Source: an uncultured Solirubrobacterales bacterium (GTDB lineage Bacteria > Actinomycetota > Thermoleophilia > Solirubrobacterales > Solirubrobacteraceae). From it: DNA of 64,000 nucleotides. Numbering within the stretch: position 1 is the first letter of the stretch; each line of letters opens with the position of its first letter. The position numbers were made by a program, and so were the translations under genes. Under the pieces are notes generated by a model, which worked only from the letters and a program-made list of their open reading frames with translations, made no database searches and was not told the DNA's origin. This document shows positions 18,390-21,723 of the stretch, one piece after another. The stretch is from NCBI GenBank assembly GCA_963733555.1, contig CAVTDO010000001.1:64913-128912 (forward strand), written 5' to 3'.

Positions 18390-18989
18390 CTAGGTCTTGC
18401 TCTTGCCGCGCTTCTTGCCCTTGGCCTTGCTCGGCGTGCCCTTTTTCGGCGGGAACCTGCCCGACCCGGTCGACGTCACCTTGCCCGCCTGCTTGGCCTG
18501 AGAGGTGGCGCTCGTCGTCCCGGTTCCGGAAACGGCTGGGATCGCTCCGACCGGGTTCTTCGGTGAGTCACAGGGCACCACGCTCGGCACCTTCGGGGCC
18601 TGGCGCCCGGCGTAGGTGGCCACGAACATGGCCACCTCCTTGGCCTGCTGGCCGACGACGATGTTCTGGGGCATGATCGCGCCGGAGAAGCCGCCGTTCT
18701 CGATTGCGTAGAGCACGCGGGTGACCGGACGCTCACAGCGCTGGTCGAAGTTGGGCCCGTTGTTGTACTGGGCCGTGCGCACGTTCGCCGCCGACCCGTG
18801 GGTGGCGGCGTAGGAGAGCGTGTGGCAGCCGGCGCAGCGCTGGTTGAACAGGAGGGCGCCCTGATAGAGAGCGCCGTGAGACTTGGCGACCTGGACCGAC
18901 TCGGTGCCGAAGCTGGCGCACGCGGACAGCGCGCTCGCCACGGCGAGCATCGCGGTCGAGACCAGGAAGAGCTTGACTGGCCGGGCCAT
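18390..18989 (-). CDS. Monoheme class I cytochrome c lipoprotein with Lys-rich tail
   Basis: Lipobox LSAC; CAGCH heme-binding motif; GPNFD; distal Met in 'IMP'. Confidence 0.85.
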   Translation of the reverse strand: MARPVKLFLVSTAMLAVASALSACASFGTESVQVAKSHGALYQGALLFNQRCAGCHTLSYAATHGSAANVRTAQYNNGPNFDQRCERPVTRVLYAIENGGFSGAIMPQNIVVGQQAKEVAMFVATYAGRQAPKVPSVVPCDSPKNPVGAIPAVSGTGTTSATSQAKQAGKVTSTGSGRFPPKKGTPSKAKGKKRGKSKT

Positions 18990-19028
18990 GCGGGCCCGGA
19001 TGATACGCGGCAACTACGATCCGGCGCG

Positions 19029-19403
19029 ATGCGCAAGCTGCGAGCGGCCACTCGCCTGCTCCTCGTGGGCGCGGGCCTCGCGGCGCTGACCGGCTGCAGC
19101 CACACCACCACCGTCGGTGCCAGCCGAACCCTCCGGATCGCTCTGACCGAGTACCGCGTAATTCCCCAGAGCGTGGAGTCCAGCGCTGGGGAGCTCACCA
19201 TGGTGGTTGAAAACGACGGCCGGCTCGCCCACGACCTGGCCGTGTCCAGCCACGGGGTCATCGTCGGCCAGACGCCGCCGCTCCAGCCCGGGACCCGCAC
19301 CTACCTGGTGCTCACCCTGACCCCGGGGAGCTACCTGATGACCTCGACGCTCTTCTCCGATCAGGCGCTGGGGGCCTACGGGACGCTGAGAGTCCGTCGC
19401 TGA
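19029..19403 (+). CDS. Cupredoxin-like lipoprotein lacking canonical type-1 copper ligands
   Basis: Lipobox LTGC; 'EYRVIPQSV...AGELTMVVENDG...HDLAV...L.PG.....L.LTL.PGSY' fold pattern; no Cys/His/Met in the C-terminal ligand loop. Confidence 0.6.
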   Translation: MRKLRAATRLLLVGAGLAALTGCSHTTTVGASRTLRIALTEYRVIPQSVESSAGELTMVVENDGRLAHDLAVSSHGVIVGQTPPLQPGTRTYLVLTLTPGSYLMTSTLFSDQALGAYGTLRVRR

Positions 19404-19421
19404 GGGCGCGAGGCCGCGCCC
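19404..19421 (+). terminator. GC hairpin after the stop codon (possible terminator)
   Basis: GGGCGCG-AGGC-CGCGCCC; no U-tract. Confidence 0.4.
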
Positions 19422-19455
19422 GCGGAGGGGACGCCGCACGACGCGGACCAGGGAA

Positions 19456-19605
19456 GGTGCCCGCTCCCGGGCGCCGAACCAAGCCCTACCCCGGCGCCGG
19501 CCGATGAGACGTTCGCACCTGTAGTCATGCGCGATCGTCCTCCGACGGCGGCAACCAGGAGGCCGGCGCCGGGATCCTAACCCCTGCCTGCCGGGAGGGG
19601 GGACC
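19456..19605 (+). ncRNA. Structured RNA candidate with 6S RNA-like architecture (strand uncertain)
   Basis: Closing stem 19456-19470/19591-19605 (13 of 15 pairs); large C/A-rich internal bubble; perfect 13-bp stem 19490-19502/19561-19573; branched apex. Confidence 0.45.
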
Positions 19606-19622
19606 CGATATAACCGGCCGGG

Positions 19623-20123
19623 ATGGCCACCGAGCTGGATCCCGAACTCTTCCGTGAGGTGTTTGGCCGGTTCGCCACCGGCGTCGCCGTGGTGACCAGC
19701 GCGGGCCAAGGCCGCAGCGGCGGGATGACGGCCAACGCCGTGTGCTCGCTCTCCCTGGATCCGCTGCTCGCGCTCGTCTGCTTCGCCAACGAGGCCCGGA
19801 CGCTGCCGATCGTTCGGGAGGCCGGCCGCTTCGCGGTCAACGTGCTCGCCTCCGATCAGGAGGACCTGGCCGCCGTGTTCGCCTCCAAGCTGCCCGAGGC
19901 GGAGAAGCTGGACGCGGTCGCCCACCGGGTGGAGGGCGGCTTGCCGATCATCGAGGGGGCGCTCGCCTGGGCCACGTGCCAGCTGCGTGAGCTGATTCCC
20001 GGCGGAGATCACACAATCGCCATCGGCCAGGTCACCGCGATGGGCCTGGGCCGGGGCGAGCCGCTCATCTGGTACGGCGGTCGCTACCTCACGGGGCCCT
20101 GCGAGGGCGGCTCCGCCGCCTGA
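19623..20123 (+). CDS. Flavin reductase family protein
   Basis: 'FREVFGRFATGVAVVT...GMTANAVCSLSLDP', 'GGDHTIAIGQV', 'PLIWYGGRY'. Confidence 0.92.
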   Translation: MATELDPELFREVFGRFATGVAVVTSAGQGRSGGMTANAVCSLSLDPLLALVCFANEARTLPIVREAGRFAVNVLASDQEDLAAVFASKLPEAEKLDAVAHRVEGGLPIIEGALAWATCQLRELIPGGDHTIAIGQVTAMGLGRGEPLIWYGGRYLTGPCEGGSAA

Positions 20124-20125
20124 GG

Positions 20126-20569
20126 TCAGTGGGCGGTTTGGGCGGCGCGCAGAAGCAGCACGACTATCACCGCGGCCGCGAGAGTCATCACGCCGAGCTC
20201 ACGGCGCAGAATGGCCAGAACCACCGAGCGCTGCTCCTCGGCGGGTTGCTTTCCAACCGCCTGGGCCGACTCATAGCCGCGGGTGTCGAGCACGGACTGA
20301 GCCGAGGCGGCACGGAACGCCTCGGCAATGACCGAGAAGAGCAGCGGCAGCGCGCCGTAGATCACGTGCAGCTCGGGCGGCTTGTGACCGAGCGCGACGA
20401 GGACTCCGCCGAGCGCCACCTGGACCACGGTCACGGCCTGCGTCACACGCAGAAGCCGCCAAAACCAGGCGCTTGAGCTGACGCGCCACCACGCCCACAG
20501 GCCCCACACTCCGGTGACCCCCCACGCGGCGATGGTCAGGACCCCGACGACGAGATGAACCTGCTTCAC
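20126..20569 (-). CDS. Hypothetical membrane protein
   Basis: About 4 hydrophobic segments; 'ELHVIYGALPL' motif; GTG start assumed. Confidence 0.65.
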   Translation of the reverse strand: MKQVHLVVGVLTIAAWGVTGVWGLWAWWRVSSSAWFWRLLRVTQAVTVVQVALGGVLVALGHKPPELHVIYGALPLLFSVIAEAFRAASAQSVLDTRGYESAQAVGKQPAEEQRSVVLAILRRELGVMTLAAAVIVVLLLRAAQTAH

Positions 20570-20660
20570 GCAACCCCTCCGCACCGGCGGCGGCAGACGC
20601 ATAGGCTTGAGCCCTCGCTGAGGGCCGTACCGCCCCGAACATAGCCGCATTTCGCACTAA

Positions 20661-20707: not shown

Positions 20708-21064
20708 ATGCTCCGTGACTACCTCCCAGCGCTCGTGTTCCTAGTTCTGGGCGGCGTCATCGGCACGCTCTTCGGCGTGCTCAACCTATTCCTCGGCCGC
20801 CGCCATCCGAGCCGGTCCAAGCAGGAGCCCTACGAATGCGGCCTGCCCTCGGAGATCCAGCGCGGCTTCCGCTTCGGGATCAGCTTCTACCTCGTGGCGA
20901 TGCTCTTCATCCTGTTCGACATCGAGGTCATCTTCATCTATCCGATCGCCGTCCAGCTCCGGGCCTTCGGGACCTTCGCCTTGAGCGAGACCGTGGTCTT
21001 CGTTGTGCTGCTGATGGTCGCCTTCGTCTACGTGTGGCGCCGCGGGGCCCTGCAATGGAACTGA
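20708..21064 (+). CDS. nuoA: NADH-quinone oxidoreductase subunit A
   Basis: 'KQEPYECG', '[14 protein letters not shown]', '[10 protein letters not shown]'. Confidence 0.96.
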
Positions 21065-21723
21065 AGCGTGAGCAGGTCGATCCGGCCGACCTCCGGATCA
21101 ACAAGCTCCGCGCCCACGACATGCTCCGGGATGACCTGGACGACGACGAGCTCGAGCGCTACGTCCAGGAGCGGGTCGTCACCACGACGCTCGACCGCGC
21201 CGTGTCCTGGGCCCGCGGCAACTCCTTCTTCCCGCTGACCTTCGGGCTCGCCTGCTGCGCCATCGAGATGATGTCGATCGTCGGAGCCCGGCTGGACATC
21301 GCGCGCTTCGGCTTCGAGGCCTTCCGGGCCTCACCGCGCCAGGCCGACCTGATCATCCTGTCCGGCCGGGTGTCGATCAAGATGGCTCCGGTCATCCGCC
21401 GCATCTATGACCAGATGCTCGACCCCAAGTGGGCCATCTCGATGGGGGCCTGCTGCTCGTCGATGGGCGTCTTCAACAACTACGCCCTCGTCCCGGCGGA
21501 CAAGTTCATGCCGATCTCCGTGCACGTCCCCGGTTGCCCGCCGCGTCCCGAGGCGCTCGCCCACGGAATCCTGCGCCTCCGCGATCAGGTGATGGGCAAC
21601 CCGCCCGCCGGCTGGCGTGAGCGCTACGCCGCCAACGGAACCGAGGAGCTGCTGGCCCCCGAACACGACGGCGACGGCGCCGAAGTCAACGTCTTCGTAC
21701 CCGGGGAAACCGCCGGTGCCTGA
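21055..21723 (+). CDS. nuoB: NADH-quinone oxidoreductase subunit B
   Basis: '[11 protein letters not shown]', 'ASPRQAD', 'SMGACCS', 'VPGCPPRPE'. Confidence 0.97.

Follow-up and report, generated by a model that had tools for sequence, protein, structure and literature searches.

A candidate small-RNA gene with a covarying hairpin and a putative promoter of its own in Solirubrobacterales

RESULTS

Genomic context

The DNA analyzed here (the window) is a stretch of 64,000 nucleotides from an uncultured Solirubrobacterales bacterium (family Solirubrobacteraceae). A sequence-only reading had flagged positions 19456-19605, which fall in a 219-nt gap between a cupredoxin-like lipoprotein gene and a flavin reductase gene. 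The former (19026..19403, + strand; real start MRKLRAATR..LTGC, stop at 19403) encodes a product whose match to Pfam Cupredoxin_1 is weak (E 4e-4, below the cut-off). It is the usual upstream neighbor of the element described below and is co-oriented with it. In 30 of 66 loci, its stop codon lies at -50 to +13 nt relative to the element's AGG, and a promoter of the element would therefore overlap the end of the cupredoxin gene. Orthologues of this protein in other families carry the pattern C-x4-H-x4-M (C-T-V-x-D-H-x-x-L-G-M), and the type-1 copper ligands have been lost in the genus of the window, where the corresponding residues are S-T-L-F-S-D-Q-A-L-G-A (C to S, H to D, and M to A).

The flavin reductase gene (19623-20123, +; Pfam Flavin_Reduct, PF01613, E 1e-40) has a promoter-like box of its own, TATAAC-N8-ATG (19609..19625, +), which is separate from the element and stands at the same distance from the flavin reductase ATG in relatives. 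Boxes of this kind, TATAAC/TATGAT-like and located 8 to 9 nt before an ATG or GTG, form a second putative promoter type of leaderless genes; in relatives, they are also found at a cytochrome c-like gene. That gene is arranged head-to-head with the element, and its AT-rich box is 6 to 60 nt from the AGGA block. Its counterpart in the window is a weak cytochrome c-like open reading frame (ORF) (18390-19013, −), while those of relatives are clear cytochrome c-like lipoproteins. Downstream of the flavin reductase gene are a four-helix membrane protein that is conserved and has no Pfam match (20126-20650, −) and nuoA/nuoB (20708-21723, +). The surroundings are thus respiratory genes, near serS, and a tie between the role of the element and respiration would be a guess. 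In one sister family, the gene downstream of the element is RsbW-like (anti-sigma kinase-like) and convergent.

Distribution and copy number

The element was present in ca. 30 of 36 genomes of the genus, at 75 to 90% identity and always near serS in the same neighborhood. Using a covariance model built from 30 sequences, we found full-length copies in 64 of the order's 201 sampled genomes, with exactly one copy per genome. The carriers belonged to the family of the window (33 genomes), a second family (29), and a third (2), while two other families had none; many genomes of the window's own family lack the element as well. In the genome of the window, the next best match scored 24.6 bits versus 108.7 bits for the element, and by BLAST, the next best match was short. 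Given that there is one copy per genome instead of many, dispersed palindromic repeats of the REP type were discarded as an identity.

Outside the order, a sample of the rest of the class gave three weak matches (E 7e-4 to 9e-3, the E values of the model being approximate), and a broader model gave no match in a 401-genome sample of the rest of the phylum. In a specificity control based on named contigs, matches were found only in uncultured Solirubrobacterales, Solirubrobacteraceae, and Conexibacter metagenome-assembled genomes (MAGs), and chance matches to the pattern in other phyla were rejected by the covariance model. The element is confined to Solirubrobacterales, soil bacteria. No publication about RNA motifs of Conexibacter or Solirubrobacterales came up in a literature search.

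Two helices conserved by compensatory changes

The core of the element is P2, a perfect 13-bp G+C helix formed by the arms CCCGGCGCCGGCC (19490..19502, +) and GGCCGGCGCCGGG (19561..19573, +), which enclose 58 nt. Within it lies the hairpin P3 (19508..19539, +; GACG..CGCA/UGCG..CGUC), in which 19508-19517 pairs with 19528-19539 around a variable apical loop (19518-19527). The two helices, both present in the minimum-free-energy fold, are separated by an asymmetric internal loop, with a short 5' side, GAUGA (19503..19507, +), that varies from 2 to 6 nt in the alignments, and a conserved 3' side of 21 nt, CUCCGACGGCGGCAACCAGGA (19540..19560, +). Compared with shuffled sequences, the fold had a z score of -2.74 for 19456-19605 and of -3.38 for the RNA proper (19488-19585).

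We evaluated pairing across 61 distinct homologues aligned to the covariance model, a type of alignment that favors the pairs of the model. With this proviso, 96.9% of the pair cells of P2 and P3 were standard pairs (90.4% in shuffles), two-sided changes occurred at 16 of 22 pairs, and there were 60 compensatory cells versus 9.1 in shuffles, none of 500 shuffles reaching as high a value. Compensatory examples were also evident in the raw sequences, and the signal was lost when the pairing partners were slid. By helix, P2 had two-sided changes at 10 of 13 pairs, with 97.2% of its cells paired in the family alignment, and P3 covaried at all four outer pairs and two of three inner pairs. The apical loop of P3 ranged from ca. 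8 to ca. 50 nt between species. Insertions of 20 to 40 nt at this tip were seen in loci L030 (about 1490-1652), L051, L055, L063, and L066, with the rest of the RNA unchanged.

The sequence of the P2 arms is itself nearly invariant, which we counted against a small-RNA gene. Each arm also holds a perfect 10-bp palindrome, CCGGCGCCGG, so the locus could act as DNA: as a pair of palindromic protein sites (two copies of CCGGCGCCGG), as a cruciform, or as an ancient palindromic repeat that has become immobile. We regard a DNA-level element as decidedly improbable: there is one copy per genome, with the gap in score between the first and second matches of the own genome given above, and the changes that do occur break the palindrome within an arm, keep the pairing between arms, and often produce G·U on one strand. 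Strand asymmetry was evident when one-sided changes were counted. Read on the + strand, they gave 59 G·U pairs and 34 mismatches, whereas the opposite strand would have had 13 and 80, respectively. Therefore, the molecule that folds is a + sense RNA or at least a + sense single strand.

Other foldings fared differently. A hairpin at the 5' side, P1 (GGUGCCCG/CGGGCGCC), forms in the window, but it was rejected on a family mean z of +0.07 versus shuffles. Pairing of GCGnCGAA with the 5' strand of P3, inspected by eye, was unconserved, and a search across the family for a conserved pairing partner of the loop strand 19540-19560 returned none. A small ORF or other coding reading was likewise discarded, since there is an invariant 11-mer and no start codon, and the loop indels do not come in threes.

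The sequence-only reading had proposed an RNA of ca. 150 nt with a 6S-like rod and a central bubble. Its perfect stem is P2, present in the minimum-free-energy fold and covarying in the 61 homologues. Of its two apical hairpins, GACG..CGCA/UGCG..CGUC corresponds to the covarying P3, while CUCC/GGAG is unconserved and restricted to this genome. The closing stem, GGUGCCCGCUCCCGG/CCGGGAGGGGGGACC, did not hold. Although 13 of its 15 positions are complementary here, it is absent from the minimum-free-energy fold, RNAfold preferring local hairpins, and across the family, the 5' and 3' flanks paired no better than permuted pairs. With the closing stem and the CUCC/GGAG hairpin unconserved, the bubble is absent as described: its 5' strand would be the spacer and initial leader of a putative promoter (see below), and its 3' strand is an unconserved spacer that leads up to the promoter-like box of the flavin reductase gene. 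No more than ca. 90 nt of RNA are conserved. The proposed check by covariation in relatives did bear out P2 and P3, both kept by compensatory changes in ca. 60 genomes of Solirubrobacterales.

Loop strand and 3' end

Within the 21-nt strand of the internal loop, CGGCGGCAACC (19546-19556) was invariant in 30 members of the genus. The stretch CGGCGGC(A/G)A in the same strand was retained throughout the order, and the CCUCC part was not found in all families. Sequence conservation ends after P2, where a pyrimidine- or A-U-enriched tail (19574..19585, +) is the likely region of the 3' end. Many relatives have tails such as GGGGCUCUAAUUUC at this point, A/U or pyrimidine enriched and not clean U tracts. 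A simple terminator scan called no intrinsic terminator.

A two-block motif upstream of the hairpin

Conservation resumes upstream of P2 in two short blocks. The first, -35-like, is G-n-AGG-A (19453..19458, +; here GAAGGT), in which AGG was invariant and the G at -2 nearly invariant among 51 aligned members. The second, -10-like, is GCGnCGAA (19471..19478, +; here GCGCCGAA), with G and GAA invariant and C nearly so. The putative promoter spacer between them (19459..19470, +), which forms a hairpin with its neighbors in the genome of the window, is fixed in length and free in sequence. Measured from the A of AGG, the G of GAA stood at a distance of 21 nt in 58 of 59 members, and the spacer columns held ca. 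0 bits. A fixed distance and an information-free spacer without indels are typical of two sites recognized on DNA, and the conserved 5' half (19453-19478) is best read as a putative promoter. A simple sigma-70 promoter scan made no call. The spacing GGA-N16-CGA is that of extracytoplasmic function (ECF)-type promoters. The resemblance of the 5' bubble strand to that of Escherichia coli 6S RNA, pointed out in the sequence-only reading, maps to a part that is most likely the -10 block plus the initial leader of this putative promoter.

The same motif recurs elsewhere in the genome, before leaderless genes. A position matrix of the two blocks gave 16 genome matches at ≥16 bits, versus 6 in a reversed/complemented control, and an ORF of at least 100 aa began within 4 to 17 nt after 8 of the 16 matches, versus 13% at random positions. 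Pfam identified as true gene starts after the motif those of TMEM175, DivIC/FtsB, an XerC/D-like recombinase, and HD-GYP. At the TMEM175 gene, the motif was kept across the genus: 12 of 14 close orthologues had it at -33/-34 relative to the GTG or ATG, while the spacer and the upstream flank were variable. The match before a DivIVA-like gene was a false positive: there, the “motif” falls within the end of the coding sequence of the preceding gene, and a ribosome-binding site accompanies the real ATG. Since one high-scoring match is coding sequence, the motif matches are not all promoters. Examples of motif sites in the own genome are C5:93315-93960 (−), C2:622933 (+), C2:209153 (+), C4:224037 (+), and C2:1006826 (−), where C2, C4, and C5 are contigs; the leaderless genes led by the motif encode a TMEM175 channel, DivIC/FtsB, two XerC/D-like recombinases, HD-GYP, and others. 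The DivIVA-like coiled-coil protein (157 aa; C2:1034095-1034565, −), whose gene is the second of an operon, with a ribosome-binding site, is 76 to 97% identical across the order, which is unusually conserved for this group.

With the pattern AGGR-N16-CGAA, there were 133 genomic sites, and ORFs of ≥120 aa following them had their start codons clustered 9 to 10 nt beyond GAA: 6 plus 6, that is, 12 at these two offsets versus ca. 2.4 expected and about one at each other offset. We therefore propose AGGR-N16-CGAA followed after 9 to 10 nt by a start codon as a candidate promoter class of leaderless genes. Among 59 members of the RNA family, 47 had a pyrimidine at position +9 after GAA and 40 a purine at +10; pyrimidine/purine is the usual -1/+1 pattern at transcription starts. 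The P2 arm begins 10 to 12 nt after GAA, and in the leaderless genes with the same motif, the start codon is at +10/+11. From these coincidences we infer that the motif works as a promoter here too; the predicted transcription start would be the A at 19488 (+), preceded by T and located two bases before P2.

The blocks could instead be part of the RNA, with AGGA...CGAA forming a pseudoknot with the loop UCCUCC in a transcript of ca. 135 nt, derived either from the 3' end of the cupredoxin mRNA (a 3'-untranslated region [3'-UTR]-derived small RNA) or from promoters farther upstream. In many loci, the cupredoxin stop codon abuts or overlaps AGGA, and complementarity between the AGGA block and the loop can be found in examples such as GUGAAGG/UCUUCAC and GCAGGA/UCCUGC. 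The AGGA:UCCU duplex had an energy of -8.6 kcal/mol within sequences versus -8.2 kcal/mol in permuted ones, a value reached by ca. 3% of the permutations, with kinship ignored. If this pairing is real, the 5' half belongs to the RNA. However, the 21-nt spacing is fixed, with a free spacer that has no indels, unlike the loops of the RNA (that of P3 varies freely) and shows no hairpin signal, and the same two blocks stand at a fixed distance before protein start codons. A 3'-UTR origin is also at odds with the inverted copies (see below), which have no upstream cupredoxin gene and are still conserved. On balance, we consider the longer, pseudoknotted RNA unlikely and retain the reading of the blocks as a putative promoter.

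Inversion and persistence without neighbors

In 6 of 30 genomes of the genus and in one genome of another family (loci L013, L022, L027, L029, L032, and L035 in the genus and L067 in the other family), the complete unit (AGGA through P2) was found inverted between the same two genes. The inverted segments span ca. 140 to 200 bp, contain the RNA gene only, and have no obvious flanking inverted repeats. Since the inner spacer is not self-complementary, the inversion is not an alignment artifact. On the flavin reductase tree, the best topology needs four changes of orientation, while the well-supported branches alone force only one. An invertible switch operated by recombination between the 13-bp arms was rejected: the 5' blocks, which are outside the arms, are part of the inverted segment.

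The unit is likewise retained in genomes that lack the cupredoxin gene, the flavin reductase gene, or both. Since it stays conserved when inverted and when its neighbors are missing, it behaves as an independent gene and not as the leader or trailer of a neighbor. This bears on the possibility of a cis element, which might terminate the cupredoxin transcript or stabilize its 3' end or, like a riboswitch, attenuate read-through into the flavin reductase gene. The commonest order, cupredoxin, element, and flavin reductase on one strand, would suit such a role, as would the strong G+C stem of P2 followed by a U/pyrimidine-enriched tail. Nevertheless, we judge it improbable. The element is inverted relative to both neighbors in at least seven genomes, where the G·U pairs remain on the strand that is sense for the element, and is present without the cupredoxin and/or flavin reductase gene, a convergent gene being next in one family. 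Moreover, the flavin reductase gene has its own TATAAC-N8-ATG box, and a terminator has no need for an invariant 11-nt loop sequence. A riboswitch or another cis-regulatory leader, which would keep one position and orientation ahead of a single gene family, was set aside, as the gene downstream may be the flavin reductase, a convergent membrane protein, or the convergent RsbW-like gene and the unit is inverted in at least seven genomes.

Comparison with known RNA families

Searched with Rfam 15 at the gathering thresholds, the whole window yielded only a tRNA-Ser, and the region 19300-19750 at E ≤ 10 yielded nothing but two chance matches inside the flanking genes. In 15 homologous loci, Rfam gave nothing at E ≤ 1. 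Resemblances to a T-box, a hammerhead, and a tRNA-Sec were not borne out by Rfam. The genome has its signal recognition particle (SRP) RNA (RF00169) at a separate locus (C4:148693-148789, 61.5 bits). Where a Y RNA occurs, the genome encodes a Ro60/Rsr (TROVE) protein, usually adjoining the RNA; a Y RNA was set aside, there being no match to PF05731 (TROVE/Ro60) in the own genome, which is 90% complete. Ms1, an RNA of Actinomycetes of ca. 300 nt that binds core RNA polymerase, was set aside on length.

For 6S RNA, the check put forward by the sequence-only reading came out negative: at E ≤ 10, RF00013 matched neither the region nor any other part of the genome. Across the order, 86 of 201 genomes, distributed in three sister families, each had a single 6S RNA by the same model, which detected none in any sampled genome of the window's family; an nhmmer profile made from the 6S RNAs of the order also had no match in the own genome. 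Ten sister-family genomes contained both a genuine 6S RNA and this element, on different contigs or at different positions. Two 6S RNAs coexist in Bacillus, so co-occurrence alone is not decisive. Taken together with the failure of the model, the lack of a conserved rod, and the size of ca. 90 nt, it led us to reject an identity as 6S RNA. The element could still be a 6S/Ms1-like polymerase-binding RNA in miniature, with P2 as the closing stem, the internal loop as the bubble, and P3 as the terminal stem. It is single copy with both ends paired, and RF00013 finds no 6S RNA in the whole family of the window and one per genome in three sister families. However, we hold this to be very improbable, as the model does not match, the length is ca. 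90 nt versus 150 to 200 nt in 6S RNA, the loop is very asymmetric, with sides of 5 and 21 nt, the closing stem and bubble first proposed are unconserved, and the RNA coexists with true 6S RNA in ten genomes and is missing from many genomes of the family without 6S. Of the initial alternatives, “6S/Ms1-like or a novel noncoding RNA (ncRNA),” the second has stood, the RNA being conserved, covarying, single copy, and without an Rfam match, while the 6S/Ms1-like rod has not.

DISCUSSION

We consider it reasonably probable that 19453-~19585 (+) of the window is an autonomous small-RNA gene, with a putative promoter of its own and a hairpin of ca. 90 nt. As we picture it from the alignments, G-n-AGGA, 16 free bases, and CGAA (19453-19478) would direct initiation ca. 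10 nt after GAA, at A19488. The transcript would extend to 19575-19585 as a hairpin with its first and last bases locked in the 13-bp P2. Beyond P2 would come the short 5' loop strand, a P3 of 9 to 10 bp with a variable tip, and the 21-nt unpaired strand with CGGCGGCAACC, and the pyrimidine-rich tail after P2 would be the end of the RNA. We infer action in trans as the most likely mode, by which a stable, end-protected hairpin would display a conserved single strand to a conserved partner. The partner may be mRNAs, the strand being C rich and anti-Shine-Dalgarno-like in the family of the window, or a protein. A search of the own genome for 12-mers complementary to the loop strand gave matches at chance level, inside genes only.

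The failure to detect 6S RNA throughout the family of the window leaves a small opening for a substitute. A miniature polymerase- or sigma-binding RNA, with its own alternative-sigma promoter, might take on 6S-like duties where no 6S RNA is detected. We give this only a slim chance; many genomes of that same family do not have the RNA.

Thermoleophilia are abundant soil bacteria, almost entirely uncultured, and to our knowledge, virtually nothing has been established about their RNA biology. What is new here is a previously undescribed, covariation-supported RNA family with predicted ends. The candidate promoter class, AGGA-N16-CGAA-N9/10-start, would help in the annotation of Thermoleophilia genomes, and a whole family without a recognizable 6S RNA is a further observation gained. 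No principle is overturned, and until a partner is found, the RNA joins the orphan structured RNAs.

Among known systems, the putative promoter is closest to those of the ECF type (group 4 sigma factors), whose consensus is AAC-N16/17-CGT. It shares with them two short blocks at a rigid distance, a free spacer, and a start a few bases downstream. It differs in that AGGA and CGAA are not known to match any consensus and in that it would drive leaderless mRNAs as well as an RNA gene.

The hairpin itself invites three comparisons. Like 6S RNA (RF00013, ssrS), it is single copy and noncoding, with paired 5' and 3' ends, an internal loop, and a terminal helix. However, it is half as long (ca. 90 versus 150 to 200 nt), its loop is strongly asymmetric (5 versus 21 nt), and nothing connects it with RNA polymerase. 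Bacterial small SRP (4.5S) RNA is also a single-copy, single hairpin of ca. 100 nt, with clamped ends and a conserved internal loop, but in the element, the conserved loop is near the base and not at the tip, and the sequences are unrelated. Finally, the element resembles 6C RNA (RF01066), an actinobacterial small RNA with a C-rich seed, in being a small, stable, G+C-rich hairpin RNA with a C-rich single strand. As in other small RNAs with such seeds, its CCUCC could pair with purine-rich ribosome-binding sites. Unlike 6C RNA, whose model it does not match, it would present its seed in the internal loop of one long hairpin and not in the C-rich apical loops of two.
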